The notes below the pieces were generated by a model. That model had not been told where the DNA came from and did not search any database. It was given only the letters and a program-made list of their open reading frames with translations. Position numbers and translations under genes: made by a program. From NCBI GenBank assembly GCA_024711205.1, contig JANJTH010000259.1:1-46900 (forward strand): a DNA stretch of 46,900 bases, in the 5' to 3' direction. The DNA is from Planctomycetota bacterium (lineage in GTDB: Bacteria > Planctomycetota > J058). Positions 16,792 through 43,355 of this stretch are shown here, piece after piece; the stretch's first letter is position 1; each line of letters begins with the position of its first letter.

Positions 16792-16794
16792 GGG

Positions 16795-21475: not shown

Positions 21476-23287
21476 TCAGCGTCCTGGCGCGCCGGCGCTG
21501 CGGGCCTCGAGACCTGGCACGAGCCCGCGCTCCACGAGCCAGCGGGCCGTCGATCTGGCAGCTTGCTCGTGGCCGTCGCGCGACCAGTGTCCGTCGCCGA
21601 ACTCGTAGAGGTGGAGTCGTGCGCGCAGACCGGGCTCGAGGGCAGCGAACTCGACGTTCAGGTCCAGGCACGGCAGCCCGAGAGCGTCGCAGATCGCCTG
21701 GAACTGAAGCGCGGGATGGCGCGGATCGAGCGCATCCGGGTCGGTGACCGGCTCGGCGCCTGGCAGCGCCGCCTCGAACTCCAGCGGCGAAGTGAAGACG
21801 ACGAAGGCCAGGGCGACATCTCGTTCGGCGCACTCGGCCTGGAAGTCCGCGACGAGGGCGCGCGTCTCTGCCCAGGCCCCCTCCCAGATGTCGGCGAACC
21901 GACGAGGCCTGCGGCGGTAGAGGTCCGCCGCGAGTGACTCCTGCTCCCCGCGCAGCGTTCTGAGCATGAGGTCGGCGCGATCGCTCAAGAGGGCGGGGAC
22001 GAGGAGTCCGCGGGTGATCGAGGCCAGGTAGGCGCGGCGCGCCCAGGTCGACGCCGTCGTCTCCCGCGCGATCGCCTCGCGCAGCGGACGGGAGTTGTCC
22101 ATGACGTCGTTCGCGCAGAGGAATTCGACGAGGACCAGGTCCGGTGAGTAGGAGAGGCCAAGCTCTCGGAGCGCCCGCAACGAGTCGGTCTGCCCCCAGC
22201 CCGACCACCCGAGCGCCATGACCTCGATCGTCTCGTCCCGGTCGCCGAGCGCGGCCAGGTCGCGCTCGAGCAGGCGGTGGAACAGGTCTTCGAGGGGGAC
22301 CTGGATCCCTTCGACGAAGCTGTCCCCGAGCACGAGGATCCGGAACACCCCGGGCGGCTTCTGGACGTCGTGGTCGACGTCATGAAATCCGATCGAGTTC
22401 CACCGGACGACGTTGCGTCGCTCGACGGGGACGCGCGGCTTGAGCAGCGGCCCCTCGTATCGCGAGACGCCGCCGGGCTTGTGCCAGCCAGGGTCCGTGC
22501 TGTCGACGATCAGATCTCGATACGGGTTCGGGACGAGGCGCAACGACACCTCACCCAGAGCCAAGATCACGAACAGGAGCGCTGCCGGCACCCCCAGCCG
22601 AAGCAGAGCTCGCCGCCGCGCCCGCGGGCTCCACCCCGCGACGCACCGTCGATGCCAGCTCGGGAGCAAGAGTGCAGCGGCGAGGATCGCCGCGGCCACG
22701 TCGGGCTGGGCCGCTCGAGACGCCCAGATCCCGAGGAAGGTCGCCCACTGCGCGACGACGCGACGCCCCCACGTCGCGTCGCCGCGGACGAGGCGGGCAG
22801 CCTCGGCGATCGAGGGGGTGAGCAGCGCGGCGCCGAGCCAGGAGATCTCGTAGCGCGCGGCCAGACAGCCCAGCACCACGAGCGGTCCGCACGCCGCGAC
22901 GATCCGCTCCGCGCTGGCGACCTCGCGAGCGGTGGAGCCGGGGCCAGGAGGTCGGACGCTGCGCCAGACGCCTGCGAGCCCCCCGAGGCCGGCCCCCCAG
23001 GTCGAGGGGATCGGCAGCAGGAGGCTCGCGAGCGCCGCGAGCTCGAGGGCCACGAGCCCTGGAGTCCGCATGCCGACGGGACACGATCCCGTCCGCAGCG
23101 CGCCCCAGCGTTCGAGGTGGGCCGGCAACCAGACGACGGCGAAGCCGATCGTCTCCACCTGGATCCCGCCTGTGCCGCGCTCCCACGCGAACCGCGCGAG
23201 GAGGGTGAGCGCTGCCACCGCCTCGAGCGAGAGCATCACCCTGGCTTGACGGCGATCTACGAGCTCGGCAGGCGGGGTCGCGGGCAT
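21476..23287 (-). CDS. Polytopic membrane domain (~250 aa) fused to an SGNH/AlgX-like domain (paralog 4)
   Basis: About 7 N-terminal hydrophobic segments, then FRILVLGDSFVEGIQ (block I) and YEFGDGHWSRDGHEQAARS (DxHW...G block V). Confidence 0.8.
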   Translation of the reverse strand: MPATPPAELVDRRQARVMLSLEAVAALTLLARFAWERGTGGIQVETIGFAVVWLPAHLERWGALRTGSCPVGMRTPGLVALELAALASLLLPIPSTWGAGLGGLAGVWRSVRPPGPGSTAREVASAERIVAACGPLVVLGCLAARYEISWLGAALLTPSIAEAARLVRGDATWGRRVVAQWATFLGIWASRAAQPDVAAAILAAALLLPSWHRRCVAGWSPRARRRALLRLGVPAALLFVILALGEVSLRLVPNPYRDLIVDSTDPGWHKPGGVSRYEGPLLKPRVPVERRNVVRWNSIGFHDVDHDVQKPPGVFRILVLGDSFVEGIQVPLEDLFHRLLERDLAALGDRDETIEVMALGWSGWGQTDSLRALRELGLSYSPDLVLVEFLCANDVMDNSRPLREAIARETTASTWARRAYLASITRGLLVPALLSDRADLMLRTLRGEQESLAADLYRRRPRRFADIWEGAWAETRALVADFQAECAERDVALAFVVFTSPLEFEAALPGAEPVTDPDALDPRHPALQFQAICDALGLPCLDLNVEFAALEPGLRARLHLYEFGDGHWSRDGHEQAARSTARWLVERGLVPGLEARSAGAPGR

Positions 23288-23564
23288 CGTCTTGACCCCT
23301 GGTCGGTTTAGGGTACTGCCTCGGGCCCGATCCTACAGAACTCACCGGGGGGTGGTGTCGAAGGCGCGACTGCGTCCACGACACCGGACGGCATCGCCGA
23401 GGCCCGACCATCCAGGGGACAGACGCGCCGGAGCAGGCCGCCCTCGCCTCGAGCGGCTCGACTTGCGGGCCGCCCAGCGAGAGTGAAGCGCCCATGGCGC
23501 CTGGAGGCTCTCCGGTGCCCCTCGCCCTGGTATAGGGTAGTCTTCGGAGCGATGCTGAGGGCTC

Positions 23565-25812: not shown

Positions 25813-27111
25813 ATGTGGGCACTCCGTCTCGATCACGTCCGGAAGGTCTATCGGCTCTACGATCGGCCTGCTGACCACCTCCTCGAGCTGCTCACCTTCG
25901 GCGTCCGCCGACGGCACAAGGAGCTCGTCGCCGTCGAGGACGTGACGTTCGAGGTCGAGGCGGGGACGACGCTCGGCCTGATCGGCCGCAACGGCGCGGG
26001 CAAGAGCACCCTCCTGAAGATGATCAGCGGAAACCTGAGCCCCACCGCGGGGACGATCGAGGTGCGAGGCCGCGTCTCGAGCATCCTGGAGCTGGGCATG
26101 GGGTTTCAACCGGCGCTCACCGGCGGGCAGAACATCCGCATCAACGCCCTCATGCTGGGCCTACGGCCGCCCGAGATCGAGGAGCGCATCCCGAAGATCG
26201 TGGCCTTCTCGGAGCTCGGGGACGCGATCGACCGCCCGATCGCCACCTACTCGAGCGGGATGGTCGCGCGGCTCGCCTTCTCGATCCTGACCGCCGTGGA
26301 GGCGGACGTCCTCGTCCTCGACGAGGCCCTCGCGACGGGCGACGCCGGCTTCATCGCGAAGGGCCGACGCCTGATCGAGGAGCTGCGGTCGCGCGGGAGC
26401 ACCGTGATCCTCGTGTCCCACGAGATGCGGCACATCACGCAGCTCTGCGACAAGGCGGTGTGGATCGACGGCGGCCGGGTGCTCGGTGAAGGACCCGCCG
26501 AGCGAGTCTGCGAAGACTACCTCGCCTCGCTCCCCCGTGTGGAGCCCCCGGCCCATGAGCGCGTCCTGACGCCCACTCGCCTGCTGTTTCGCCTCAGCAT
26601 CCCGCCGAGCGCGGAGGGGGAGGTTGCCTTCCCTGTCGCGACCCTCGGCTACTGGGACGTCGAGCAGCAGCGCGACCTCGGGTCAGCGCAGCTCGCCCTG
26701 CAAGCTCACGCAGACACGAGCTTCGCGGGCACGCGCGAGAACGGCGTCGACGCCGTCGCGGCGCGCGCAGGATGGGGCGAGGTGATCGACGCGGACGGTC
26801 GAGAGGCTCGGGTGTTCCGACTCCGGGCGGAGGCGCCCGCCTACGTCTCCGTGTCGACGCCCTTTCACGGCTCGGGCGGGTCCGTGGTCATCCGGCTCTC
26901 ATTCAGGGACGACACCCCACAGCCCATGCTCGTGGACCTGCTGCACGCAGGGGTGACCACGCGCCTCGGCACCGCGTTCGGCGGCGGTGACGGGAGCTGG
27001 CGCCACGTCGACTTCCGACTGCCCGCCTCGATGCGCTTCGACACGCTGCTGACCCGTGAGTCCGCCTTCGAAGCGGCCAGCGCGCGCTCGGGCGAAGGAG
27101 TCGGCGCGTGA
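25813..27111 (+). CDS. ABC transporter ATP-binding protein of polysaccharide-export type (Wzt/TagH-like) with ~190-aa C-terminal extension
   Basis: Walker A GRNGAGKSTLLK, signature YSSGMVARLAF, Walker B VLVLDEALATGD and H-loop VSHEM. Residues from ~250 to 432 form an extra non-NBD domain. Confidence 0.9.
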   Translation: MWALRLDHVRKVYRLYDRPADHLLELLTFGVRRRHKELVAVEDVTFEVEAGTTLGLIGRNGAGKSTLLKMISGNLSPTAGTIEVRGRVSSILELGMGFQPALTGGQNIRINALMLGLRPPEIEERIPKIVAFSELGDAIDRPIATYSSGMVARLAFSILTAVEADVLVLDEALATGDAGFIAKGRRLIEELRSRGSTVILVSHEMRHITQLCDKAVWIDGGRVLGEGPAERVCEDYLASLPRVEPPAHERVLTPTRLLFRLSIPPSAEGEVAFPVATLGYWDVEQQRDLGSAQLALQAHADTSFAGTRENGVDAVAARAGWGEVIDADGREARVFRLRAEAPAYVSVSTPFHGSGGSVVIRLSFRDDTPQPMLVDLLHAGVTTRLGTAFGGGDGSWRHVDFRLPASMRFDTLLTRESAFEAASARSGEGVGA

Positions 27112-27956
27112 GCCCCCCCAGCCCTCGTCGCGGCGCCGGCCCCACCACGGTCGACGCGTCCCCGCGCGTCCAATGGCTCAAGAACCAGCTCTACGCGCTC
27201 CTCTTCCTCACCTACTACGGCTTCGTCCAGCAGTACAGCCGCGCGGCCCTGGGGCTCCTCTGGTTCTTCATCACCCCTCTCTCGTTGATGGCGATCTATG
27301 GGGCCCTGCTGCAAGGGGTGTACGACGTGCGCCTCCCAGGGGCCGGCAGCAAGGCTTCCTACGCCCAGCTCATCCTGGCGGGGCTCCTCCCCTGGTCGGC
27401 CTTCGCCGACGCCGTCGGCAATGGAGCCTACAGCCTGATCAACAACCCGAGCGTGCTCCGCCACTCACCCATGCCGCCGATCTTCCTGCCGACGGTCAAG
27501 GTGATCCAGCCCTTCCTCGGCCTGGCGGTCGGCATGGCCGTCCTCGTGGCGGCGGGTGCGCTCCTGGGCGACCTCGCGGGCGCGAGGGTACTCCTGGTCC
27601 TCGTCTCCTGCGCGTGCCTCTTCCTGTTCGCGCTCGGGGTCACTTGGATCGTGGCCGCCCTCGCCGCCTACCTGCGAGACGTGACCCAGCTCGTCTCCAC
27701 GCTCCTGCTGATCGGAATGTTCGCTTCTCCCGTGTTCTACACCCCGTCGATGATCCAGGGCATGCCGGAGGTGGTCCAGGTCGCCATGCGGGCCAATCCG
27801 CTCTCCGCATACATCGGTCTGTCGCGGGCAGCGTTCATCTCCAACCCGTTCGATCCGTTGGACGTCGTGCTCGGCGTCCTGTTCGCCCTCGTCGCGCTCG
27901 CCCTCGGCGCCGTCGTGTTCCGCAGGCTCGAGCCAGGTCTTGCGGATTGCGTATGA
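27108..27956 (+). CDS. ABC-2 type polysaccharide export permease (Wzm/TagG/KpsM-like)
   Basis: GTG start overlaps the upstream TGA (GTGA at 27108-27111). About 6 hydrophobic helices. N-terminal ...LLFLTYYGFVQQYSRAALGLLWFFITPL is typical of ABC-2 permeases. Confidence 0.85.
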   Translation: MSPPSPRRGAGPTTVDASPRVQWLKNQLYALLFLTYYGFVQQYSRAALGLLWFFITPLSLMAIYGALLQGVYDVRLPGAGSKASYAQLILAGLLPWSAFADAVGNGAYSLINNPSVLRHSPMPPIFLPTVKVIQPFLGLAVGMAVLVAAGALLGDLAGARVLLVLVSCACLFLFALGVTWIVAALAAYLRDVTQLVSTLLLIGMFASPVFYTPSMIQGMPEVVQVAMRANPLSAYIGLSRAAFISNPFDPLDVVLGVLFALVALALGAVVFRRLEPGLADCV

Positions 27957-28134
27957 CGGCGCGGCCGTGAAGCGAGTCCCGCGGCGGCCGCTGCGCTGGA
28001 CCGTGTACCAGGTGATCCCCTCAGGACGCAGGGGTCAGCGAACTGTGGGGACTGAGCGAGGTCTCGCCAGGTCCCCATGTGCTTCCGGGCCGGCGTAGAC
28101 CGTGACTCGCGGCGGGCCTCCTGAGGCAAGCTCC

Positions 28135-29538
28135 ATGCCGCGCACGGGAACCGGAGCTCCCGGGATCGGCGTCGTCGTCTACGACATCGACGCGGTCGGC
28201 GGCATGGAACGCCAGGCCCTTCGCCTCGTGGAACGCCTGGCCGCGCGGAACCTGCGCGTGACGGTCTTCTCGCCGCACCGCGCGACTTCCGTCGCCCTGC
28301 CGGGCCGGGAGCGACGACCAGGGGTCGAGATCATCCGGGTGCCCTTGGTCGAGGATCGCCTCTCGATCGCGGAGTGGTGGCGCTACTTCGAGGACCTCAT
28401 GGCCGCCGCGCTTGCGGCTCGCCCCTGGATCGACGTCCTCTACGCGGTGCACTACGCGGCCGCGTACCACGCAGTACGAGTTGGTCGCCTGGTGGGTCTA
28501 CCAGTCGTCATGAAGTTCGCATGCTCGGGCGAACACGGAGACATCGCCACCCTTCGCCGACGTGACCAAGCGGCTGACTTCGAGCGCGCCCTCCGGTGCG
28601 TGAGCCGCTTCGCGTGCATAACCGAGGCGGTCCGAGACGAGGCGCACGCATTCGGCCTGGACCCGGCCCGCACGGTGCTGATCCCCAACGGGATCGACCT
28701 GGCCGCTTGGGGTCGCGCCCGCGGCCCCACGGTCGGCGCCGGAGGCCAGATCCTGTTCGTCGGGCGTCTCGCCGAGCAGAAGGCGGTCGACGTGCTCCTG
28801 CGCGCGTTCGCACGCGTTCGAGTCGCCCACCCGAGGGCCCGACTGCTGTGCGCTGGGGACGGGCCCGAGCGCGCATCGCTCGAGGCCTTGACCGACTCGC
28901 TCGGCCTCGCGGGCTCCGTCGACTTCCTCGGTCGACGCGACGACGTCCACGACCTCCTGCGCGAAGCGGCTGTGTTCGTCCTTCCCTCACGGTCGGAAGG
29001 GCTCTCGAACTCGCTCCTCGAGGCGCTCGCCACGGGCACCCCCGTGATCGCCTCGGACATTCCGGGCACGCGGGAGGTCGTGCGCCACGAGGTCGACGGA
29101 CTGCTCGTGCCGGTCGATGACGCCGCCGCCCTCGCCGCGGCCATCGACCGCGTGCTCGGGGACTCCTCCCTGGCGGCGCGGCTGTCCTCCTCGGGACGAG
29201 CGCGCGCGCTCGAGTTCGACCTCGAGCGGGTCGCCGACGCCTACCTGAATCTCTTCGCGGATCTGGCCCGTGGCCGGAGGGCAGGCGCGTTCGGCTCCAG
29301 AGCGAGCGCCCGAAGGAATCTCCTGCGACGAGTGCTTCGGCTCGCGAGGCTCCTGAGTGCCGAGGAGGCGACCACGGCGAGGCTCTGCGCGTCACGTCTC
29401 CTCGGGCAATCCCGGCGGGCCATCTCGGATCGAGTCGTCGCAGCGAAGGCCCGCGTCGGCGTCGAAGGCCCGATCCTTCGCCGTCTCCTCGGCCGCGGCC
29501 ACCGACGTCGCCCGAACCCCGGCGGCCAGCCCCAGTAG
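28135..29538 (+). CDS. GT4 family glycosyltransferase (GT-B fold) with basic ~100-aa C-terminal tail
   Basis: IGVVVYDIDAVGGMERQALRL at the N-terminus, FVGRLAEQKAVDVLL and the EX7E-region PSRSEGLSNSLLEALATGTPVIASD. ATG at 28135 lies within track ORF 28102..29538. Confidence 0.85.
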   Translation: MPRTGTGAPGIGVVVYDIDAVGGMERQALRLVERLAARNLRVTVFSPHRATSVALPGRERRPGVEIIRVPLVEDRLSIAEWWRYFEDLMAAALAARPWIDVLYAVHYAAAYHAVRVGRLVGLPVVMKFACSGEHGDIATLRRRDQAADFERALRCVSRFACITEAVRDEAHAFGLDPARTVLIPNGIDLAAWGRARGPTVGAGGQILFVGRLAEQKAVDVLLRAFARVRVAHPRARLLCAGDGPERASLEALTDSLGLAGSVDFLGRRDDVHDLLREAAVFVLPSRSEGLSNSLLEALATGTPVIASDIPGTREVVRHEVDGLLVPVDDAAALAAAIDRVLGDSSLAARLSSSGRARALEFDLERVADAYLNLFADLARGRRAGAFGSRASARRNLLRRVLRLARLLSAEEATTARLCASRLLGQSRRAISDRVVAAKARVGVEGPILRRLLGRGHRRRPNPGGQPQ

Positions 29539-29553: not shown

Positions 29554-31539
29554 TCACCGCTCTCGACTGGCGTCCCCCTGGCCGAGCGCCGTGAGCGTGC
29601 GCACCCGCTCGAGCGTCGGCTCGAGGACGCGCGCCCGGAGCGCGGCGCGCAGGCGCTCTCGGACCTCCGCCGGCACGGACCCCGGTCTGCGGGCCGCGGC
29701 CGCGAGGAGCCGCTGGTACGCGGGGAGCATGTCTTCGGGGTCGCGGAGCAAGAGCCCGTCGGGCGCAGTCTCACCGTAGTTCGCGAGGGTGACGTTCTTC
29801 GGCGGCCGCGGGACGGACACCTGTCGCGGCGTGACCTCGATGTGCGGGAGCGGGAGCCCGAGCCCCGGGACCGTGAAGGAGGCCCCGCCGGAGGTCGCGA
29901 GCGGGTTGTCGAGGTCGTAGTAGAAGTGCACGAGCACCTTGTCGCCGGGGACCACCTCGGCCGCAGGGAGGTGCAGGACGTACTCCCCGGCGCCGTCCGG
30001 GGTCTCGCGATAGGCGGCGGGCTCGGCCGCGCGCGGGGTCACGACGACGAGCCCGGGGCGGACGAGCCCCGTTACGACACCTCCCGGGTCGCGCAGCCGG
30101 ACGTGGAGCCGCCGCGTCCAGGTGTAACGGCTTCTGGCGGCGAGGTAGGCGCGCTCGACCTCCTCGATCATGGCGGTCGGGTTGACGCGCCGCATGGCCC
30201 GGCGGCCCTCGCTCACGCCGCGCGCAGCGACCTCCTTGGCCCTGGCGATCGACGCCTCCCAGCCGCGCGTCTGGGCCTCGAAGTCCTCGAACGCGTTGAG
30301 CTGCTCGGTCACGGGCACGTTGAGGATCGGCGAGAGGTTCACGCCGATCTCGTGCCCGATCGCCAGCTCGAGGTTCGTCGCCAGCTCGGCCACGTTCGTC
30401 TTGCAGACGACCATGCCGACCGTGAAGGTCCGGCGGACCGTATCGTGAAGCTCGAAGCAGCGGAGCGCGTTGCGGAGGACGGTCTCGAAGCGGGCCCCCC
30501 TGCGCAGGCGCTCGAACGTCTCCTTGACGAAGCTGTCCATGGAGATCGACGCGTTGAGCCGGGGGAACTTCTTCAGCTTCTCGAGCTCGCCCGACGTGAT
30601 CATGGTCCCGTTCGAGGTGAAGCCGAACACGAGGTGCGGGTTCGAGGCCGGGTCGAACTCGGCCACGAAGTCGCGGAACCGCTTGATCAGGAACGGCTCG
30701 CCGCCCTGCCACGTGAAGGCGTGCAGGTACGGGACTTTCGAGAGCACCTCGGGGACGACCTCGGCGCGGAGCTGCACGCCGATCGGCCGCTGGTGGTTCT
30801 GCGAGCAGTGCGGGCAGTCGATGTTGCAGTCGGCCGTCGAGATCATGGTGACCATCGTCGGCTGGTGCCCGACCACGGCGTCGCCGCGCCGGTACGACGC
30901 GTACGCCGCGCGGAGGTTCTCGGCCGACCGCGAGGCGTCCTCGAGCCGCTCGAGCGTCGCCTCGGCCCCGCCTCGGCGCGCGACGTAGGCCCGCCCGTTC
31001 GTGAGCACGTCGCTCCCGTCGGAGGACGAGAAGGCGAGCGTCTCGCCGTCGAGCAGGTAGCGACCACGACCAGCGCTGCGGACCTCGTCCATGGACGTGA
31101 CGGCAGGCCCGAGCGCGACCCCGTCCTCGAGCACCTCGAGCGGCCCTTCGGCCTCGACGACATCGGGCGGGAGGCGCCAGCCGAAGCAGTGCCCGGCCTC
31201 GGCCCGGAACGGCCCCGGCATCTCGAACCCGGGCTGGAGCGCGCTCGTCCAGCGATAGGCCAGGCAGTCCTTGCAAGGGTGGCCCTCGAGGTCGCCGGAC
31301 GCGTTCCGCCGGCGGAGGTCCTGGTAGGCCGGCCCGTTCCAGATCTCGTCGAGCGTCTGGACGTTGACGTTCCCGAGCGCCTTGCCCGTGTTGGCGTACG
31401 TCGTCCAGAAGCAGCACGGCACGACCTCGCCCGTGAGGTCGATCTGGAGCTGCTGCCACGGGTAGCCGCAGACGGACCGCTGCGTCGAAGCCAAGTCGCA
31501 CCTCGCGGTCCCGAGGATACAAGGTCCGCGCTTCACCAT
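29554..31539 (-). CDS. Radical SAM protein with N-terminal SPASM/twitch-like Cys-rich domain and ~300-aa C-terminal extension
   Basis: C-terminal 662 aa of track ORF 29554..32340. ATG at 31539 is preceded by GGGAGG. CNIDCPHC (CX3CX2C) is encoded at 30805-30828 (residues 238-245). Residues 1-120 carry 8 Cys, including CGYPWQQLQIDLTGEVVPCC (CX12GX4C) and HPCKDC. GGEPF follows the core motif. Confidence 0.8.
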   Translation of the reverse strand: MVKRGPCILGTARCDLASTQRSVCGYPWQQLQIDLTGEVVPCCFWTTYANTGKALGNVNVQTLDEIWNGPAYQDLRRRNASGDLEGHPCKDCLAYRWTSALQPGFEMPGPFRAEAGHCFGWRLPPDVVEAEGPLEVLEDGVALGPAVTSMDEVRSAGRGRYLLDGETLAFSSSDGSDVLTNGRAYVARRGGAEATLERLEDASRSAENLRAAYASYRRGDAVVGHQPTMVTMISTADCNIDCPHCSQNHQRPIGVQLRAEVVPEVLSKVPYLHAFTWQGGEPFLIKRFRDFVAEFDPASNPHLVFGFTSNGTMITSGELEKLKKFPRLNASISMDSFVKETFERLRRGARFETVLRNALRCFELHDTVRRTFTVGMVVCKTNVAELATNLELAIGHEIGVNLSPILNVPVTEQLNAFEDFEAQTRGWEASIARAKEVAARGVSEGRRAMRRVNPTAMIEEVERAYLAARSRYTWTRRLHVRLRDPGGVVTGLVRPGLVVVTPRAAEPAAYRETPDGAGEYVLHLPAAEVVPGDKVLVHFYYDLDNPLATSGGASFTVPGLGLPLPHIEVTPRQVSVPRPPKNVTLANYGETAPDGLLLRDPEDMLPAYQRLLAAAARRPGSVPAEVRERLRAALRARVLEPTLERVRTLTALGQGDASRER

Positions 31540-31687: not shown

Positions 31688-33499
31688 GTGACGGCGACGG
31701 GTGACGACGCGACCGAGGAGCCGGGTTCGGGAGCGGCCGACCCCGCGAGCGCCCAGGAGGTCGACGCGGCGGGCGACGACTTGGTCGTCCTTCGCTTCGA
31801 CGCGGAGCAGCCCTTGGTCCCGATCCGGCGCGCTCGGCGAGTCACGGTGATCGGGGCCGGAGCGATCCCTCCCTGGCTGCGGCCGGCGCGGTGCGCGCCG
31901 CTCTCCGAGCTCCTCCGCCCTGGCGGGATCCCGGCGCTCCTGCACGAGCGGCCCCGCCGCGCCCTCGTGTGCACGCTCCGCGGGGTCACGGTCCGCGGGG
32001 TCCTCGCGGCGCGCCGCCACGGCGTCGAGTGGTTCCACCTCATGGACTCGTCGTCCTCGCAGTTCGTGTGCAACGCCCGGGGCGCCCTCGTGATCGCGGC
32101 GAAGCGAGAGGCCCAGCGCGCGCTCGGCCGTGCGCCCCTCCTCGCGCGCGGGCTGGAGCGGTGCTTCGGCTTCCGGATCAACCCGCGCTTCCCCTCGCTC
32201 GCCGCGACCGCCGAGGTCGCGCGGGCGGCGCTCGAGCTCGGACGGAGGCAAGGCCCACCCCCGCCGCACCCGCCAGGGCCGCTGCGGATCGTCCACTGCA
32301 TCGGCGCGCTCGGGCCCGGCGGCGCGGAGCGCCAGCTCACCTACCTGGCCACCGCTGCGCGCGCGGCCGGGCACGACGTGTCGGTGCTCCTGACCTACTC
32401 GAGCGAGGGCGACGACGGCCACTACGCCCCGACCCTCGCGCGCGCCGGGGTCCCCGTCCACACGCTCGAGGCCCTCGCGCGCTGGCGGCCGACGCCGGCT
32501 TTGCGCGACCTCGCGGGCCGCCCGCTCGCGCCCGCGCTCCTCGAGCCCCTGGAGGAGCACGAGGCCTACTCGATCGTCGTGCCCCTGATCGAGGCGCTGG
32601 TCAGGCTCCGGCCGCACGTCGTCCACTGCTGGCTCGACGAGCCGAACGTCCTCGGCGGGCTCGCCGCGCTCCTGGTGGGCGTCCCGCGCATCGTGGTCAG
32701 CACGCGCAACGTGAACCCGACGAATTTCCCGCGCTTCCACAAGATCTGGTACGAGGGCGGCTACCGCGCGCTGGCCGACTGCGAACGGGTGGCCTTCGTA
32801 GCCAACTCGGCGGCGGGGGCAAGGGACTACGCGCGCTGGCTCGGCCTCCCCGTCGAGCGCTTCACGGTGATCCACAACGGCCTCCCTCCCGTGGGCCCCG
32901 CCCTCGACCCGGCGGCGCGAGCGCGCCGCCGCGCGGCCGCAGGGCTCGGCGAGGGCGACCTGCTCGTCGCCGCCGTGTTCCGCCTCGCGCGCGAGAAGCG
33001 CCCCGAGGACCTCGTGCGCGCGGTCGCGGCCGCGCGCGCGACGGCACCAGGGATCCGCGTCTGGCACGTGGGCGTAGGGCCCGGCGAGGCCAGCTTCCGC
33101 GCCGCGATCCGCGCGGCCGGGCTCGAGCACGCCTTCGTGCTGCACGGCCGCTGCGAGGACCCCTGGGCCCTCGTCGACCTGGCCGACGTCACCGTCCTCT
33201 GCTCGGCGCAGGAGGGGTGCCCGAACGTGTCGCTCGAGAGCCAGGCGCGGGGGATCCCCGTCGTGCTCACGGACGCGGGCGGCTCCGCCGAGACGGTCGT
33301 CGAAGGGGAGACCGGCTTCGTCGTCCCGGTCGGAGCTCCGACCGCCCTCGCCGCATGCCTCGTGGAGCTCGCGCGCGACCCCGCCCGCGCCAGGGCCATG
33401 GGTGAGGCCGGCCGCCGCTTCGTGGCCGAGCGGTTCTCGATCGAGGGCATGGTCGCCGCGTCGCTTGCGGCCTACTCCGCCGGCTCCGCGCGCGGCTGA
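31688..33499 (+). CDS. GT4 family glycosyltransferase, possibly with ~190-aa N-terminal extension
   Basis: GT4 core from ~32270: LRIVHCIGALGPGGAERQL, FRLAREKRPEDLV and EGCPNVSLESQARGIPVVLTDAGGSAETV. Start is uncertain. GTG at 31688 has AAGGGGG upstream and high GC3 downstream. ATG at 32042 is a shorter alternative. Confidence 0.75.
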   Translation: MTATGDDATEEPGSGAADPASAQEVDAAGDDLVVLRFDAEQPLVPIRRARRVTVIGAGAIPPWLRPARCAPLSELLRPGGIPALLHERPRRALVCTLRGVTVRGVLAARRHGVEWFHLMDSSSSQFVCNARGALVIAAKREAQRALGRAPLLARGLERCFGFRINPRFPSLAATAEVARAALELGRRQGPPPPHPPGPLRIVHCIGALGPGGAERQLTYLATAARAAGHDVSVLLTYSSEGDDGHYAPTLARAGVPVHTLEALARWRPTPALRDLAGRPLAPALLEPLEEHEAYSIVVPLIEALVRLRPHVVHCWLDEPNVLGGLAALLVGVPRIVVSTRNVNPTNFPRFHKIWYEGGYRALADCERVAFVANSAAGARDYARWLGLPVERFTVIHNGLPPVGPALDPAARARRRAAAGLGEGDLLVAAVFRLAREKRPEDLVRAVAAARATAPGIRVWHVGVGPGEASFRAAIRAAGLEHAFVLHGRCEDPWALVDLADVTVLCSAQEGCPNVSLESQARGIPVVLTDAGGSAETVVEGETGFVVPVGAPTALAACLVELARDPARARAMGEAGRRFVAERFSIEGMVAASLAAYSAGSARG

Positions 33500-33744: not shown

Positions 33745-34760
33745 CGACGAAACTCGTTGTCGAGCTCCGGCGAGCTGAGCGCCGAACGATCGCGAAGGCG
33801 CTGCGAAGGAGCAAGGACGCGGAGTCCGCACCCGTTGCTTGGCGGTCCTCGCCTACTCGCGTGGGGAAGGAACCGTCCGGGCGTCGAAGGCGCTCGGCTA
33901 TGCCCCGTCCACGGCGATCGGCGCAGTCCGCCGGTACCTGCGAGACGGTAGGGCCGGTCTCACCGACAGGCGGAAAGACAACGGGGGGCCGAAGATCGTC
34001 GCCGACCTCTTCCAGGCGCTCGCCGAGATCCTCTCCAAGCACCCCGCCGACCTCGGCTCGGAGCGACCGACGTGGACCCGGGAGCTCCTGGCCCTCACCC
34101 TCGACCAGCTCGGAGTGGCTGAGGTCGGGGTCACGACGGTGTCGCGGGCCCTCGCGCGTCTCCGCGGCGAGTGGGAGGTCGCCAAGCCGATCGTCGGGTG
34201 CCCTTGGAGCGCCCGTCGTCGCGAGGAGCGCCTGCGCCAGATCCGCCGACTCGCGGCCCACCGCAGGTGAGGGGAGGTCGTCGTCCATGCCGACGAGATC
34301 GACGTTCACTTCAACCCGAAGATCGGGCGTGACTGGAGCCTCCCGCGCCGTCAGCCCCGCGTCCTGACGCCCGGGAAGACCGCCAAGCGGTACGTCGCCG
34401 GGGCCCTCGACGCCAGGACCCTCAGGCTCGTGTGGGTCGCGGCAGAGCGCAAGAACAGCGACCTGTTCATTGCCCCCCCCGCCTCGAGGCCGCCTACCCG
34501 GCCGCTCGGAGGGTCCACGTCGTCCTCGACGACTTCGTGATCCGCTCCTCGAAGAAGTCCGCAAGGGCGCTCGCGGAATCGAGCGGCAGGATCCGACTCC
34601 ACTTCCTGCCGCCCTGCTGCCCCGACGACAACCGGATCGAGCGCCTCTGGCAGACCCGCCACGCCAACGTCACCCGCAACCACCGCCACGCCAACATGGA
34701 GTCGCTGATGGCCGCCGTCAGGCGCTGGCTCAAGCTCCCCGTCGCCCAGCGGACCGCCGC
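33745..34760 (+). mobile_element. IS630-family transposase remnant, interrupted by at least three frameshifts (pseudogene)
   Basis: The HTH part ELRRAERRTIAKALRRSKDAES shifts frame near 33825. The next frame reads RCLAVLAYSRGEGTVRASKALGYAPSTAIGAVRRYLRDGRAGLTDRRKDNGGPK...PTWTRELLAL (track ORF 33839..34270). After a shift near 34268 comes VVHADEIDVHFNPKIGRDWSLPRRQPRVLTPGKTAKRYVAGALD...AERKNSDLF. After a shift at the C-run near 34475 comes RRVHVVLDDFVIRSSKK...LHFLPPCCPDDNRIERLW. Boundaries are approximate and no terminal inverted repeats were identified. Confidence 0.7.
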
Positions 34761-35025
34761 CGGTCGCGCCAGATACCTGGCGAGGCGCCTCGCGTCCCGA
34801 GCCGTCGCTCCACCGGGTCACCATCGTCGAATCCTGGACCCTGATTCAGTCGGCCTCGCACGTCCGGACAGCCCTCCGCGCGTCTCCGCGCGCGAGCAGC
34901 ATGGCAAACCGGCATGGCACCCGCCGGAAGCCGGGTCGTGGCCCGTGGGCCCACGCGACCGCCCTGGCAAGCTCCGGGGGCCCCATGAGACGATCCACAG
35001 CGGGAGAGTTCTCGCCGAGGGACGA

Positions 35026-37263
35026 GTGAGCGACACGACCCAGGCCGGCCAAGGCGACTCGAGGGAGTCGGGAGAGCACGAGCCGACGCTGCGCTCCAGG
35101 TCCGGCCTCGTGCTGCTCGCCGGCATGGTCACCCTCTCGTGCGCCTTCGCGCTCGGGTCGAACGAGCTCGGTGGGCGCCTCGGCTTGCCGGAGCTGGCCC
35201 TGCGGAGCAACGCCGGGCTCCTGCTCCTCGCGGCCTGGGTGTGGACGTGCAACCGCGTCCTGGTCGGCCCTCGAGCGCGTCGGGCGCTGGCGGCCCTCTT
35301 CGTCCTCCTGGACCTCGGGGTCCTGATCGCCTGCACACGCCTCGGGGCCGCACTCGCGCTCCCCGGGTTCGACCTCTGGGGCATGGACGGGGTCGTCCTC
35401 GCCGTCCTCAACCTCTGGGCCTTCGAGCGCGCGGTGGACGGGAAGCGACGAGCCCTCACCTCGTTCGCCGCACGCACGGGCTTGCCCGCCGCGCGCGTCG
35501 AGGAGCTCGCCGGCCACTGCGTCCTGGCGCTCCTGCTCGTTGGCCTCTTCGCCCACCGCGCCTGGCTCAGCGTCGCACTCGGCACGCCCTTCACGACCCC
35601 CGACAGCCCCTCCTATCTCGCACCCGCGCTGTCCGATCCCGTCCTGCCCCTGTCGGAGATCCGGACGCTCGGGGTGCCATGGCTCTGCTCGCTGGGCCTG
35701 GCGCTCTGGGGCAACCTCTCCGGAGTCCTGGCCCTCCACAACCTGCTCTGGGCCGCCTCGACGGCCCTGCTGGTGTTCACACTCCGAGCTCGCATGAGGC
35801 TCGGCGCCTTGCCCTGGCTGGTCTTCCTGTACCTCTCCCTGACGCAGAAGAACTTGTCCTTCGAGCTCACGCTCATGTCCGAGCACCCGTCGCGCTGCCT
35901 CTACACCCTGTACTTCGCCGTCCTGGTCCGCTGCTGGGGCGAGTGCCGGACTCGAACGACCCTGGCCTTGACCGGGCTCACCATCGCGAACGTCCTCGTC
36001 AAGCCGACCGCGATCGTCCTCGTCCCGATCACCGGGCTCGCCTACCTCATGTTCCGCCTCCGAGACCCACGCTTGCCCTGGCGCACCGTCCTGCGGCAAG
36101 TCGCCCTCGCCGTCGCGCTCGTCATCGCGTTCCAGGCCGCATACGCGTCCGCATACGCGGTCCGGTTCGGGCGCTTCGCGACCAGCGCCTTCACCGGAAG
36201 CGCGCTCTTCTCCCAGGTGGGCCACCTCGTCGACCTCGACGCACCCACCCACCTCGAGCTCAAGGCGGAGCTCCGCCGCATCCTCCCGCGATACGTCACC
36301 AGTTACGTGAGCCGTGGGGTCCATGAGCCGAACTGGCTCGTGTTCGGCTCCCTGGACGACCGCCTTCGTCGCGACTTCGGTGACCTCAGCCCGGGAAGAT
36401 CCGTCCGCGAGTACGTGGTCCGACACCGCGATCCGGCTCGAACCTTCCAGCAGCAGCTCGACGACCTGTTCAAGGAGCTCGCGGTCGAGGGGATCCGCGC
36501 CCATCCGGGGTCCTACCTCTCGCTCGCGTGCAGCGACTTCGTGCGGCTGTTCCGCGACGGGCTCGGCCCGTTCTACGGCGGAACGATCGACGACATCCGG
36601 AGCGCTGGCCCTCACGCCTGCGGCCACGGTTCACCTCCCGCGCTGCGGCTGCATCGAGAGGTCGTCGTCCGGGAGGTCCGACATGCCTACGTCATCGCGG
36701 GCGCCCAGCCGCCTGACACGGCGGCTCTCCTCGGTCGCGCGCATGGGCCCCTGCCGCTTCCGCGTGGCCCCGCCGAGCTCTCGCGTCACCTCACGGAGAT
36801 GAGCCTCTCGTTCTCCACGTTCATCGCCGAGCTCTGGAGCCGTTGGCGGGTCGGCTGGGTCCTGTTCGCCATGCTCCCCCTGGCCTGGCTCGTGCGCCGC
36901 GAGCACGGCGACGCACTGCGCCTCGCGACCTTGCTCCTCGTCACCGCGGCGGCCTACGGGGCGCTGCTCGCGCTGGTCTGCATCAGCGAGGTCGCACGGT
37001 TCGTCGCCAACGTCCAGGACCTCGTGTTCCTGGCCCTCGCGATCGTCGGCTGGGTGGAGCTCCGCGCAGTCGACGACCTGGTGGCGCGCGGCACCCGCTC
37101 TGCCCCGGAAGCCGTGAACGTGCCGCCGCTGCCCCCTCGGGACGAAGACCCGCGCGCCGAGGGCCCCGAGGTTGGCCGATCGGATCCTGTGGTGGCCGCC
37201 GGGGCCGAAGTGGGCAGCCCCGAAGCCGACTCGCAAGATTGCGATCCCCTCGCAGGGAGGTAG
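35026..37263 (+). CDS. Polytopic GT-C-like membrane glycosyltransferase candidate, paralog 3
   Basis: Distal part of track ORF 34432..37263. Motifs are TTPDSPSYLAPALSDPVLPLSEIRTLGVPWLCSLGLALWG, LTQKNLSFELTLMSEHPSRCLY, LVKPTAIVLVPITGL and CISEVARFVANVQDLVFLALAIVGWVELRAV. Start is uncertain: GTG at 35026 or ATG at 35126. Confidence 0.7.
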   Translation: MSDTTQAGQGDSRESGEHEPTLRSRSGLVLLAGMVTLSCAFALGSNELGGRLGLPELALRSNAGLLLLAAWVWTCNRVLVGPRARRALAALFVLLDLGVLIACTRLGAALALPGFDLWGMDGVVLAVLNLWAFERAVDGKRRALTSFAARTGLPAARVEELAGHCVLALLLVGLFAHRAWLSVALGTPFTTPDSPSYLAPALSDPVLPLSEIRTLGVPWLCSLGLALWGNLSGVLALHNLLWAASTALLVFTLRARMRLGALPWLVFLYLSLTQKNLSFELTLMSEHPSRCLYTLYFAVLVRCWGECRTRTTLALTGLTIANVLVKPTAIVLVPITGLAYLMFRLRDPRLPWRTVLRQVALAVALVIAFQAAYASAYAVRFGRFATSAFTGSALFSQVGHLVDLDAPTHLELKAELRRILPRYVTSYVSRGVHEPNWLVFGSLDDRLRRDFGDLSPGRSVREYVVRHRDPARTFQQQLDDLFKELAVEGIRAHPGSYLSLACSDFVRLFRDGLGPFYGGTIDDIRSAGPHACGHGSPPALRLHREVVVREVRHAYVIAGAQPPDTAALLGRAHGPLPLPRGPAELSRHLTEMSLSFSTFIAELWSRWRVGWVLFAMLPLAWLVRREHGDALRLATLLLVTAAAYGALLALVCISEVARFVANVQDLVFLALAIVGWVELRAVDDLVARGTRSAPEAVNVPPLPPRDEDPRAEGPEVGRSDPVVAAGAEVGSPEADSQDCDPLAGR

Positions 37264-38043: not shown

Positions 38044-38265
38044 CCCCGGAGAGGACGACGCCGGGCAGGGCCTGACCGTGGGCGCGTCGAAGCCTCCTGG
38101 CCCCCTGGGCACCGACATGGACTAAGCCGTCCGGCGCCCGCAGGGACCGGGCTGGTCGCGGCCGCGCACGGGCGCTAGCTTGTCGGCCGCCCGGGTCCCA
38201 GCCCGGCGGCTCCGACGGCGATCACGCCGGCGAAGGGATCCGCCCGCTTGCACGCCGCGTCCGAG

Positions 38266-40260
38266 ATGCTCAGGTACCTCCTTCCTCGCCCTCGGCGCCG
38301 TCGCCTCGCGCTCCTCGCGGCCCTGCTGGCGGCCTTCGATCTCCTGGCGCTGCTCGCGGTGAGCCGCTGGGGGGGGCCCCTTGGACTGCCGAGCCTGGAC
38401 CTGCTGTCCACCGACGGGGCGCTGCTGCTGCTCGTCAACGTCTGGGGGCTGGAGCGGCTCACGCGCGTGGGCCGCCTCGGCTGCGAGGCCCTGGCCGTCC
38501 GCCTCGGCATCGAGCGCGCGCGGCTCGCAGCGTTGACGACCTGGGTGGTCCTGGCCCTCATCATCGCGGCGGGCCTCGCGCACCGCCTCTGGCTGACCTT
38601 CGTCCTGGGTGCGCCCTTCACCCAGCCGGACAGCGCGTCCTACCTCGCGCCCGCACTGCTCGATCCGCTCCTCCCGCTCTCCGAAATGCGCACGCTCGGG
38701 ACCCCGTGGCTCTGCGCGCTGGGGCTCTCCCTGACCGGGGGACCCTCGGGTCTCCTGCTCGTCCACCACGCGCTGTGGCTGGCCTCCACGCTCGCCCTGG
38801 TCGTGGCCCTGGCGCGCCGCCGCGAGCTCCGGCTCGTGGCCGTGCTCGTCGCCGCGTACCTGACGCTCACCCAGAAGAACGTTGAGTTCGAGCTCACGCT
38901 CATGTCCGAGCACGCCTCGAGGACGCTCTACGTGCTCTTCCTGGGCATCCTTGCGAACTCGTGGGGCCACTGCCGGACACGCGTCACGCTCGCATTGGCC
39001 TCGGTCGCGTGCGCGAACGTCCTGGTCAAGCCCACCGCGCTCGTGCTGTTCTCGTCCCTCGCGCTGGTCGTTGCGCTGTTCCGACGCATGTCGCCGGGGA
39101 TCTCCTGGCGCAAGATCGCGGCCCAGCTCGGCCTCGCCCTCGCGGTCCTCGTCGCCTGCCAGGCGACCTACGCGCTCGCCTATCGCGCGAGGTTCGGCCG
39201 CCTGGCCACGAATGCCTTCACCGGGACCGCCCTGTTCTCTCAGGTCGGACACCTCGTGGACCTGGACCGGGTCACCCCGCGCGAGTTGGCCAGCGCGTTG
39301 CGCGCGACGCTCCCCGCCTACGCCGAGCGCTACGCGGCGCGAGGGCGGCACGAGGCCAACTGGCTCGCCTTCGGGACCCCGACGCCCGAGCTACTGCGCG
39401 ACTTCGGGGAGGACAGCCCCTCGCGAGCGATCCGGGACCACGTCTCGGCGCACCGGGACCCGGCACGGACGTACATGCAGCAGCTCGACGACACATTCAG
39501 GGAGCTCGCCCTCGCGGGGATCCGCGCCCGGCCACATCAGTATCTGGCGCTCGCAGCGAGCGACCTCGTGTCCCTGTACCGGGATGGCGTCTCCACCTTC
39601 TACCCGTACGACGGGCCGGAGGCGCGGCACCTGGGCGCGCTCGCCGCGGGGTATGCCGCGCCCGCGGCGCTCGAGCGCCACCGCGAGGCGGCGCTCGAGC
39701 ACTTCGGGCAAGCCTATCGTGAGGTCGAGCTCCCGGCGCCGCCCCCCGAAGCCCTCCTCGGGCGAGGGCACTCCGGGCCGCCCCTGCCGGCGCTCCCACT
39801 CGCCTACGGTCGCGCCATGGCCTGGGCCTCCATCGCCTGGTCCGAGCTGTTGCAGCAGCTCCTCCACCGCTGGCAGGTCGGCTGGCTGCTCCTCCTCGCA
39901 TTGCCGCTGGCGTGGCGCCGCCGCGCGCAGGACGCGGACGCCCTGCGGCTCGTCCTGGTGACTGCCACGGTCGCCCTCGGATATGGGGTGCTCCTCGCGC
40001 TGATCTGCGTCAGCGAGGTCGGGCGGTTCGCCACGAACGTGCAAGACCTGATTTTCCTGGGCCTCTTCCTGCTCGGCTGGGTCGAGCTCCGCGCGGTCAA
40101 TGCCTGGTTCGATGAGCCCCTGCTCGGCGCCCCCCCGGCCTCCGTCCAGGACCCCGCGGCCCACGTCGCGACCGCGCACCTCCGAGCCGACGCCCGGCCG
40201 GGCCCCACGAGCGTCGAAGGCCCCGGGCCGGTGACCGACGGGGCGCCCTGCGATGGATAG
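38266..40260 (+). CDS. Polytopic GT-C-like membrane glycosyltransferase candidate, paralog 4 (closest to paralog 3)
   Basis: TQPDSASYLAPALLDPLLPLSEMRTLGTPWLCALGLSLTG, LTQKNVEFELTLMSEHASRTLY, LVKPTALVLFSSLAL and CVSEVGRFATNVQDLIFLGLFLLGWVELRAV. ATG at 38266 (the track start is TTG at 38248). Confidence 0.7.
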   Translation: MLRYLLPRPRRRRLALLAALLAAFDLLALLAVSRWGGPLGLPSLDLLSTDGALLLLVNVWGLERLTRVGRLGCEALAVRLGIERARLAALTTWVVLALIIAAGLAHRLWLTFVLGAPFTQPDSASYLAPALLDPLLPLSEMRTLGTPWLCALGLSLTGGPSGLLLVHHALWLASTLALVVALARRRELRLVAVLVAAYLTLTQKNVEFELTLMSEHASRTLYVLFLGILANSWGHCRTRVTLALASVACANVLVKPTALVLFSSLALVVALFRRMSPGISWRKIAAQLGLALAVLVACQATYALAYRARFGRLATNAFTGTALFSQVGHLVDLDRVTPRELASALRATLPAYAERYAARGRHEANWLAFGTPTPELLRDFGEDSPSRAIRDHVSAHRDPARTYMQQLDDTFRELALAGIRARPHQYLALAASDLVSLYRDGVSTFYPYDGPEARHLGALAAGYAAPAALERHREAALEHFGQAYREVELPAPPPEALLGRGHSGPPLPALPLAYGRAMAWASIAWSELLQQLLHRWQVGWLLLLALPLAWRRRAQDADALRLVLVTATVALGYGVLLALICVSEVGRFATNVQDLIFLGLFLLGWVELRAVNAWFDEPLLGAPPASVQDPAAHVATAHLRADARPGPTSVEGPGPVTDGAPCDG

Positions 40261-40395
40261 GCTCGCGGGCGCCGCGCTGCCCTCCGAGGAGCGCCGTGAC
40301 CTCGAACGCCTTCCGCGAGAGTTCGCGCCCGGCGCGAACCACGAGAGCCCGCGGGCCACGGTCTCCGAGCCGCTCGACGCGCCCGTACGTGCCGA

Positions 40396-42303: not shown

Positions 42304-43355
42304 GTCTCCATGGCCCAGCCCATGAACCGGCGCAGCCCCTCGTCGAGCGCGACCTGCGGCTCGTAACCGAGCTGGAGCCTGGCCTTGCGCAGGTCGGGGC
42401 AGCGCCGCATGGGCTCGTCCGCGGGGTAGCTGTCGGGGTACTCGACGACGTCGCGCGCGACCTTGCGGCCGAGCACGCGCTCGAGCCGATCGGCCAGGTC
42501 GTGGACCGAGATCTCGGGGCTCGCGCAGCCGATGTTGTAGGGCTCGCCGGGGAGGCCCTTGAGCACGACGAGCAGGAACCCGACCATGGCGTCCGTGATG
42601 TAGCTGAACGTGCGCGTCTGCTTGCCCGTCCCGTAGAGGCGCAGCGGGTGGTCCCCCTTGATCCGGTTCGCGAAGTTGGGGAGCACCCGGTAGTCGGTCT
42701 CCTGCATGCCCGGCCCGTAGACGTTGAACGGGCGGATGCAGTTCGTGTGCGTCCCGTAGCGCTGGTGGAACACGTAGCAGAGCGTCTCGCCCACGCGCTT
42801 GCTCTCGTCGTAGCAGGCGCGCGGCCCCTGGCAGGCCACGTTGCCCCGGTAGCTCTCGGGCGTGGGCACGTGCGCCGCGTCGGGGTCGCCGTAGATCTCG
42901 CTCGAGCTGAAGAACGTGAGCCGCGCGCCCTGCGCGCGCGCCAGCTCGAGCATGTTCCGCGTCCCGCGGACCGCGACCTCGAGCGTCTCGAGCGGGTAGG
43001 CCCGGTAGTAGAACGGGCTCGCGATCCCGGCCGCGTGGATCACGTAGTGCACCGGGCCGTCCGGCGCGTAGGGCTCGATCACGTCGTGGCGCTGGAACTC
43101 TACCCCGGGCAGGTCCGGGACGACGGCGCCCTCCTTGCCCGCCGTGATCAGGTTGTCGAGCAGCACGACGCGACAGGGCTTCGCGAGGTGGTGCCGGTTG
43201 AGCCGGCCGAACACCTCGGCGAAGTAGCGGCCCAGGAAGCCGCGCCCGCCGGTGAGCAGCACGGTCTTGCCGGCGAGGTCGGCCGCGGCGGGCGCGATCC
43301 GGGTCGCGATCTCGTCGATGTCCGAGGCGAGCACGGGGCCAGGGCGGGTGGTCAA
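42285..43355 (-). CDS. NAD-dependent sugar-nucleotide dehydratase/decarboxylase (extended SDR, UXS/ArnA-C-terminal-like)
   Basis: C-terminal part of track ORF 42285..44552. KTVLLTGGRGFLGRYF Rossmann motif, catalytic YDESKRVGETLCYVF, FNVYGPGM and GKQTRTFSYITDAMVGF. TTG at 43355 overlaps the upstream TGA. GTG at 43334 is an alternative start. Confidence 0.8.
   Translation of the reverse strand: MTTRPGPVLASDIDEIATRIAPAAADLAGKTVLLTGGRGFLGRYFAEVFGRLNRHHLAKPCRVVLLDNLITAGKEGAVVPDLPGVEFQRHDVIEPYAPDGPVHYVIHAAGIASPFYYRAYPLETLEVAVRGTRNMLELARAQGARLTFFSSSEIYGDPDAAHVPTPESYRGNVACQGPRACYDESKRVGETLCYVFHQRYGTHTNCIRPFNVYGPGMQETDYRVLPNFANRIKGDHPLRLYGTGKQTRTFSYITDAMVGFLLVVLKGLPGEPYNIGCASPEISVHDLADRLERVLGRKVARDVVEYPDSYPADEPMRRCPDLRKARLQLGYEPQVALDEGLRRFMGWAMETYTGEG

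Follow-up and report, generated by a model that had tools for sequence, protein, structure and literature searches.

A long radical SAM protein with an N-terminal twitch domain in a Planctomycetota polysaccharide island

Gene and domain architecture

The window analysed here, that is the whole stretch of 46,900 nucleotides from Planctomycetota contig JANJTH010000259.1, is a polysaccharide island with 73% GC. Its gene at 29554-31539 (minus strand) encodes a radical S-adenosylmethionine (SAM) protein of 661 residues plus a stop codon, with several characteristic features: (i) a twitch domain precedes the radical SAM core, (ii) a small beta-sandwich is inserted between the two, and (iii) a second beta-sandwich and a helical hairpin follow the core. 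As an earlier reading of the letters and open reading frames (ORFs), hereafter the sequence-only reading, had noted, the gene stands alone on its strand between two glycosyltransferase family 4 (GT4) genes in a glycan island; both of them lie on the opposite strand. The convergent GT4 gene (28102-29538, plus strand) ends 15 nt from the stop codon of the radical SAM gene. The divergent one (31688-33499, plus strand, with an approximate start at GTG 31688) is long, has an N-terminal extension of ~230 residues, and finds its best NCBIfam match in TviE.

The start codon ATG at 31539 is located 10 nt after a GGGAGG sequence, and an alternative in-frame TTG, at 31494, serves as start in a homologue with 92% identity (P0001). 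The choice between the two decides only whether C7 and C14, both upstream of the TTG, are translated, and neither is conserved: in a family alignment of 102 homologues with 40-92% identity, these cysteines occur solely in the window protein. A much later start, near residue 225, had been raised in the sequence-only reading as a possible objection to the N-terminal domain. It is excluded because the GC content of third codon positions is 0.92-0.99 along the whole gene, the first 100 codons included (second positions ~0.5), and because residues 1-225 are kept in ~100 homologues.

The Pfam family PF04055 (Radical_SAM) matches residues 233-385 (E 2.5e-13; 51 bits versus a gathering score of 29.5). 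According to this match, Foldseek comparison and invariant alignment columns, the partial-barrel core extends over residues ~229-470 (30130-30855, minus strand) and includes GGE at 279-281 and TSNG at 308-311. The CX3CX2C motif, CNIDCPHC at residues 238-245 (30805-30828, minus strand), is invariant in 102 of 102 sequences, and its cysteines C238, C242 and C245 would hold the [4Fe-4S] cluster responsible for SAM binding and cleavage. The protein thus combines the CX3CX2C motif, a PF04055 score above the gathering threshold and a barrel fold like that of solved enzymes, and belongs to the radical SAM superfamily.

Upstream of the core, the Pfam family PF13186 (SPASM) matches residues 24-92 over positions 1-66 of its 67 profile positions (E 2.3e-16; 60.3 bits versus a gathering score of 21.5). 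As profile matches, both Pfam hits score far beyond chance. The twitch domain (residues 24-92; 31264-31470, minus strand) has the pattern C24-X12-G37-X4-C42-C43 plus C89-X2-C92, in which C24-X12-G37-X4-C42 represents the CX9-15GX4C hairpin of SPASM and twitch domains. Eight cysteines are present within residues 1-120 (C7, C14, C24, C42, C43, C89, C92 and C118). The segments CGYPWQQLQIDLTGEVVPCC (residues 24-43) and HPCKDC (residues 87-92), as well as CNIDCPHC, lie where the sequence-only reading had placed them, and its proposal of a SPASM/twitch-type domain ahead of the core is confirmed by the two Pfam matches. Only C42, C43, C89 and C92 are invariant among the N-terminal cysteines of the alignment; C24 is found in 88 of the 88 sequences whose called start takes in that column, and C118 in 91 of 102.

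A search with the family profile against all Protein Data Bank (PDB) sequences returned only viperins, at the core (E 3e-6), and BtrN, at the twitch domain (E 9e-5). BtrN, the butirosin 2-deoxy-scyllo-inosamine dehydrogenase (PDB 4M7S/4M7T), is the archetypal twitch enzyme. Profile positions 4-89 align to BtrN residues 163-246, a segment that has four cysteines and no more (169, 188, 232 and 235, counted along the alignment); these pair with C24, C42, C89 and C92. These four cysteines are reportedly the auxiliary-cluster ligands of BtrN in the work of Goldman et al. from 2013. Since the auxiliary cluster of BtrN has Cys4 ligation (PMC10337720), which agrees with that account, we take the four twitch cysteines of BtrN to be its cluster ligands. 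By this alignment, C24, C42, C89 and C92 are the predicted ligands of one auxiliary [4Fe-4S] cluster.

We ruled out a full SPASM domain with its seven cysteines and two auxiliary clusters. Only 5-6 conserved cysteines lie outside the radical SAM motif in the alignment, which is insufficient for two clusters, and the second-cluster motif CX2CX5CX3C is absent from the protein; hence the domain is classified as a twitch and not as a full SPASM domain. The possibility of a zinc ribbon, also considered in the sequence-only reading, is ruled out by the full-length PF13186 match and the cysteine-on-cysteine alignment with the BtrN twitch. The case that the N-terminal segment is a genuine twitch domain, with one predicted auxiliary cluster, is strong at the level of sequence. 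The second cysteine of the CC pair, C43, is invariant in the family and is present in 72 of 93 twitch domains of related representatives.

An AlphaFold2 model of the full-length protein, built from the family alignment, has a predicted local distance difference test score (pLDDT) of 90.7 and a predicted template modelling score (pTM) of 0.86, and it contains the radical SAM barrel. Its layout comprises the twitch (24-97), an eight-stranded small beta domain (~100-200), a helix (204-218), the barrel region (229-~470), a seven-stranded beta-sandwich (475-570) and a helical hairpin (601-653). The high pTM means only that the arrangement of domains is confidently predicted, and is not to be taken for a BtrN-like packing of the twitch on the barrel. 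When the whole protein was compared with the PDB by Foldseek, the core alone was matched, by CteB, BlsE, MoaA, viperins, NifB, SuiB, anSME and DesII (E ~1e-6 to 1e-4); Foldseek alignments are sequential, so a permuted twitch cannot show in them.

The ~300 residues behind the core, in which the sequence-only reading had recognized no motif, were only partly an uncharted extension. About 85 of them are the remaining barrel region, and they are followed by the C-terminal beta-sandwich (residues ~475-570; 29830-30117, minus strand) and by the Arg-rich helical hairpin (residues 601-653; 29581-29739, minus strand). The beta-sandwich is family-specific and has no match in Pfam, NCBIfam or PDB sequences, and the hairpin is poorly conserved in sequence. 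The two beta-sandwiches and the hairpin are probably accessory parts that bind the substrate or a partner.

Domain order, relatives and the mobile insert

SPASM and twitch domains are described in reviews as extending the radical SAM core at its C-terminus (PMC9012708, PMC10114670), whereas here the twitch at residues 24-92 precedes the core at 233-385. The sequence-only reading saw in this order a circular permutation or a novel fusion. The order itself is no novelty: an NCBIfam model already covers the architecture, which is common in databases, so that a refuting condition set by the sequence-only reading, namely a frequent and already annotated domain order, largely applies. The top NCBIfam match is NF033640 ('N_Twi_rSAM', twitch domain-containing radical SAM protein), with a score of 97.8 bits, spread over two stretches, where the cutoff is 170. 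The same model is best for three homologues; the homologues score 82-119 bits, and neither they nor the window protein reach the cutoff. The PGAP-annotated protein WP_221067113.1 from a Methylomagnum ishizawai plasmid passes it with 174.4 bits, and its twitch cysteines (~31-95) lie before CX3CX2C (at ~143). A BLASTP comparison aligns residues 17-94 of the window protein with 25-96 of this member (E 1e-5) and 227-401 with 133-317 (E 3e-13), in collinear order. Members of NF033640 thus share with the window protein a C...G-x4-CC...C-x2-C twitch N-terminal to CX3CX2C and collinear homology in both parts. Plasmid tblastn gave core-level matches only, plus one NF033640 member as a useful control.

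The abundance of this domain order was assessed by two database searches. A word-indexed search returned at least 161 proteins, and PF13186 lies before PF04055 in 120 of the 120 listed; their names are merely generic ('SPASM domain-containing protein', 'radical SAM protein', 'AslB', 'MoaA'). An exhaustive profile search over 1.84 billion representatives at 50% identity yielded 242 with E <= 1e-30. Of the best 150 representatives, 145 were newly returned; we dissected these with sub-domain hidden Markov models and distinguished the following architectures: (i) a short twitch-core form with a median length of 508 residues and a median linker of 45 residues (51 proteins), (ii) the long twitch-insert-core-C-terminal form, whether or not it has additional copies of the insert (about a dozen), (iii) proteins that consist purely of 2-6 tandem insert domains (~37), and (iv) the canonical order of core then twitch (10 proteins).

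Six of the ten canonical-order proteins carry the insert domain at the N-terminus. Their cores and twitches score 15-95 bits, compared with medians of ~135 (core) and ~70 (twitch) in the N-terminal-twitch clade. A recent circular permutation of a canonical relative was therefore rejected, as these insert-sharing proteins include no close unpermuted parent. The N-terminal-twitch enzymes form a coherent clade that is already modelled, and the domain order is not new. Within the clade, the window protein is a distinct long form (~640 residues) that falls below the NF033640 cutoff and combines an unannotated mobile domain with a conserved glycan cassette. The short form of NF033640 differs in length (~400-510 versus 661 residues), has a linker with a median of 45 residues in place of the ~100-residue insert, and lacks the C-terminal beta-sandwich and helical hairpin. 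Literature searches for radical SAM proteins with an 'N-terminal twitch' or 'N-terminal SPASM' found nothing, and no experimental characterization of the long form was found.

The insert occupies residues ~100-200 and is followed by the linker helix 204-218 (together 30886-31242, minus strand), as delimited by the AlphaFold2 model and the sub-domain models. In the window protein it has the motif G-x-G-R-Y...L-x-F-S-x-S-D-x-S-D...N-G-R-x-Y, and the consensus of the insert is ...LLEDG-x-PL...H-D-D-I-R-x-x-G-x-G-R-Y-S-x-W-G-x-x-L-Y-F-S-x-S-D-N-S-D-P-x-x-N-G-R-x-Y.... The domain is mobile and, besides the window protein, is carried by P0146, P0154, P0157, P0166, P0187 and P0197; its tandem arrays count 2-6 copies, in chains that reach 1648 residues. 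No Pfam model describes it, the tandem-copy proteins gave only one DUF4838 and one sulfotransferase match elsewhere in the chain, the source names of the insert-bearing proteins are uninformative, and no PDB sequence matched it at E < 0.7. Modelled alone (pLDDT 85), the insert gives generic immunoglobulin-like Foldseek matches in the PDB, the best at E 0.046. Its mobility and tandem arrays, typical of binding modules, suggest that it would serve as such a module. As an unannotated and widely repeated domain, it merits a family model. Homology of the insert or of the C-terminal beta-sandwich to the C-terminal carbohydrate-binding domains of Wzt was considered and rejected (hhalign probability at most 11%). 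By eye, several tandem-insert proteins start with a hydrophobic segment resembling a membrane anchor.

BtrN resembles the window protein in the ~85-residue twitch alignment with its four matched cysteines, in having one auxiliary cluster (predicted in the window protein) and in a carbohydrate-like substrate. It differs in several respects: the twitch follows the core (163-246 of 250 residues), core similarity is negligible (a 0.8-bit domain), beta-sandwich modules are missing, and the enzyme works in an aminoglycoside pathway rather than a Wzm/Wzt glycan pathway.

Conserved glycan cassette and proposed role

We examined 21 loci with family members, from Nitrospira, Planctomycetota, Gemmataceae, Bradyrhizobium, Xanthobacteraceae, Methyloversatilis, Aliidongia, Maridesulfovibrio, SAR116 and metagenomes, and counted partner genes within 10 kb. 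An ortholog of the long GT4 gene is present in 17 of these loci, an AsnB-like gene in 14, Wzm in 12 and Wzt in 11. The window has all four partners: besides the long GT4 gene, it encodes a Wzt-like ABC ATPase with a C-terminal extension of ~195 residues (25813-27111, plus strand), a Wzm-like ABC-2 permease (27108-27956, plus strand) and an AsnB-like glutamine amidotransferase (7056-8954, plus strand, start approximate; TIGR03108-like, 505 bits versus a cutoff of 817). In two Planctomycetota genomes the genes are ordered GT2-Wzm-rSAM-AsnB-GT4-Wzt(Wzt_C)-methyltransferase (GT2, glycosyltransferase family 2; rSAM, the radical SAM gene), with stops and starts overlapping or nearly abutting. The NF033640 member WP_221067113.1 is likewise encoded beside asnB, GT4 genes and Wzm/Wzt, whereas more distant short-form loci (Bacteroidota, archaea, Legionella) lack the cassette.

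The partner GT4s are 30% identical across phyla and share unusual invariant motifs. TviE, the Vi-antigen polymerase, is the NCBIfam model they match best; with 190 bits, far short of the cutoff, this resemblance is to be read as a lead and not as membership. Some homologues of the radical SAM protein are fused to transferases: an N-terminal sulfotransferase in P0004 and a SAM-methyltransferase in P0074. A metagenomic locus (L005, 10001-15453) holds two tandem long paralogues of 1147 and 655 residues, the first of them an N-terminal Sulfotransfer_3 fusion, and a separate sulfotransferase gene downstream of Wzt.

Our preferred reading, held tentatively and at somewhat less than an even chance, is that the protein is a cytoplasmic enzyme dedicated to tailoring the Wzm/Wzt-exported glycan built by the TviE-like GT4, and that it would act on the polymer or lipid-linked glycan. 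A carbohydrate substrate, which had already seemed plausible from the sequence-only reading, is the best reading of the strongly conserved gene context, and the only solved proteins related in sequence, BtrN at the twitch and viperins at the core, have sugar-like substrates. We infer the level of the substrate, polymer or nucleotide sugar, as well as the type of reaction. The former level is favoured because the constant partners are a polymerase and an exporter and not precursor enzymes, and because repeat-type binding modules and transferase fusions occur in the family. SAM would be reductively cleaved to a 5'-deoxyadenosyl radical, which would take a hydrogen from one of the sugar carbons in the nascent or lipid-linked glycan. 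The substrate radical might then be oxidized via the auxiliary cluster, in the manner of BtrN or anSME, to yield a keto or aldehyde sugar; quenching from the opposite face, which would give an epimer with C43 as a candidate hydrogen donor, is the alternative. The modified residue would be processed further, probably by the co-transcribed AsnB-like amidotransferase.

Several points weigh against this proposal. The cluster content, substrate and product given here are predictions for the whole family. The characterized sugar-modifying radical SAM enzymes (BtrN, DesII, viperin and BlsE) to our knowledge all act on small molecules and not on polymers. The AsnB-like gene, adjacent in most related loci, lies 20 kb from the radical SAM gene in the window, and the partner GT4 gene is not within 10 kb in 4 of the 21 loci. 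The insert has no significant Foldseek match to a known carbohydrate-binding module, and profile comparison points to no similarity with the Wzt C-terminal domains. The presence of an invariant extra cysteine, C43, is a further point against it.

The precedent of small-molecule substrates and the viperin-like core keep alive a second explanation, which we regard as somewhat unlikely: the same enzyme class in the same pathway would act on a soluble nucleotide-sugar precursor that the partner GT4 later polymerizes. In its chemistry the enzyme would resemble BtrN, DesII, viperin or BlsE and might, for instance, dehydrogenate or dehydrate a uridine diphosphate (UDP)-uronic or amino sugar. The core's sole solved sequence relatives are viperins, which bind nucleoside triphosphates; BlsE, MoaA, viperin and DesII are among its best Foldseek matches; and the island has genes for the tailoring of nucleotide sugars, which encode short-chain dehydrogenase/reductase (SDR) epimerase/dehydratases and UXS/ArnA-like and C-methyltransferase-like proteins. 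However, no nucleotide-sugar enzyme co-occurs consistently: among 22 loci, the window and L006 included, DegT/WbqC are present in 5 and a UDP-sugar dehydrogenase in just 1, and a tie to these specific genes was rejected for this inconsistency. The partners that do recur are a polymerase-type GT4 and the exporter, and two extra beta-sandwiches together with sulfo- and methyltransferase fusions better suit polymer-level or membrane-proximal work.

A bolder version of the polymer-level proposal, which we consider doubtful, is that the long form would perform radical chemistry directly on the growing lipid-linked polysaccharide and that the beta-sandwich repeat would be a new glycan-binding module. 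One possibility at the polymer level is that the enzyme, with the AsnB-like protein, would make a new residue or a non-reducing-end cap read by the Wzt carbohydrate-binding domain. WbdD-type chain terminators are multi-domain cytoplasmic modifying enzymes of ABC-transporter-dependent O-antigen pathways. By analogy only, they are comparable in being encoded beside Wzm and a Wzt with a Wzt_C carbohydrate-binding domain and in having a helical C-terminus, and the methyl- and sulfotransferase fusions of the homologues recall them. They differ in having no sequence homology to the window protein and in using kinase and methyltransferase rather than radical SAM chemistry, and a terminator role would be suggested by the analogy alone. 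If the bolder version were true, the protein would become the first radical SAM enzyme to tailor a glycan at the polymer level, and would provide the first case relating structure to function for a permuted (N-terminal) twitch.

Maturation of a peptide or protein, as by maturases of ribosomally made, post-translationally modified peptides (RiPPs) or by an anSME-like formylglycine maker, is very unlikely. The anSME/AtsB, PqqE, MftC, AlbA, CteB and SuiB enzymes share with the window protein the Pfam SPASM superfamily and the radical SAM barrel and appear among the Foldseek core matches; some databases name homologues 'AslB', and secondary NCBIfam matches include sactipeptide, mycofactocin, dynobactin and ranthipeptide maturases (E 1e-9 to 1e-13). 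These matches score only 35-58 bits against equivalog cutoffs of 265-625 and cover nothing but the generic core. The anSME/AtsB enzymes and RiPP maturases hold two auxiliary clusters in a 7-Cys SPASM domain at the C-terminus and act on peptides or proteins, whereas the window protein has one predicted cluster in an N-terminal domain, too few cysteines for the 7-Cys motif, and, by Pfam, no RiPP recognition element. Pfam scans of the large window ORFs revealed no sulfatase domain, nor did the called genes of related loci include one, in agreement with the sequence-only reading. A RiPP-type peptidase/exporter set was likewise not found among the called genes within ~10 kb in eight related loci, a result that does not extend to small precursor ORFs, which were not searched. 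The context is consistently one of glycan biosynthesis.

A prokaryotic viperin-like antiviral enzyme making chain-terminating nucleotides is hardly credible: viperins are the closest solved sequences to the core and take their hydrogen from a sugar (ribose), PADLOC pVip models match at E ~1e-9, and PF20706 ('GT4-conflict') matches a neighbouring GT4, but the 37-bit pVip match spans only 150 of ~260 positions (10-160 of 262) in the generic core, the NCBIfam viperin_w_prok model (NF038283) scores 32 bits against a cutoff of 180, viperins have an antiviral role and possess no auxiliary cluster, twitch or beta-sandwich modules, neither neighbouring GT4 matches any PADLOC model, and the gene lies within a Wzm/Wzt glycan operon in distant phyla.

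The linkage across phyla to TviE-like GT4, AsnB-like and Wzm/Wzt genes suggests that exported cell-surface polysaccharides undergo a radical modification not described so far. Literature searches for radical SAM proteins together with Wzt, O-antigen, capsule or SPASM found nothing relevant, and no radical SAM chemistry in this kind of exported-polysaccharide pathway was described in the literature searched. What remains unusual is the long four-domain form with its conserved glycan cassette, on which no experimental work was found. The protein is a testable lead into radical chemistry on exported polysaccharides and not a categorically new system. The culturable carriers Bradyrhizobium elkanii and Methyloversatilis make the question directly testable, and the N-terminal-twitch clade offers a test of how the auxiliary cluster is placed relative to the barrel and of how such permutations originate.

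Other genes of the island and related loci

The partner GT4s make up a distinct subfamily of proteins of ~600-660 residues with N-terminal extensions of ~200-250 residues that vary between lineages; examples are found in L001 (8070-9860), L003 (12713-14689), L005 (8052-9962) and L066 (14061-16034). The C-terminal extension of the window Wzt has no Pfam Wzt_C match, and the Wzt proteins of several related loci match this domain; the extension may be a divergent carbohydrate-binding domain. Some related islands also contain radical SAM/SPASM genes of ordinary order that encode 333-380 residues (L001, 15620-16762 and 21417-21929; L005, 19947-20948). One of these genes adjoins a formyltransferase and another DegT, and none was found in the window. 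Their presence implies that the pathway can hold more than one radical SAM step.

Besides the genes described above, the island encodes SDR epimerase/dehydratases, GT2 and GT4 glycosyltransferases, several methyltransferases and three SGNH/AlgX-like proteins. The last are paralogues of 450-620 residues (8964-10316, 13277-14956 and 21476-23332, all on the minus strand) and are probably polysaccharide O-acetyltransferases or esterases. An IS630-type transposase remnant lies right behind the long GT4 gene (33839-34800, plus strand). It includes a helix-turn-helix ORF at 33839-34270 and a DDE_3 fragment at ~34480-34710 that matches PF13358 over profile positions 70-145 of 146 and shares its frame with the beginning of a large ORF at 34333-37263.

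Three large ORFs, at 34900-37263 and 38179-40260 on the plus strand and at 14977-16794 on the minus strand, have no Pfam or NCBIfam match and appear to be paralogues. All three match, with 154-198 bits, a single gene of the Xanthobacteraceae locus L014 that lies directly downstream of the radical SAM gene there (~8450-8600 onward). The ORF at 40300-42303 has a 655-bit homologue in L001. The translation of 42285-44593 (minus strand), read by eye, contains a UXS/ArnA-like SDR protein (GGxGFLG, YDESKR) and a C-methyltransferase-like protein that has a CxxCGG zinc motif at its N-terminus, a pair that suggests a branched or C-methylated sugar precursor in the island.

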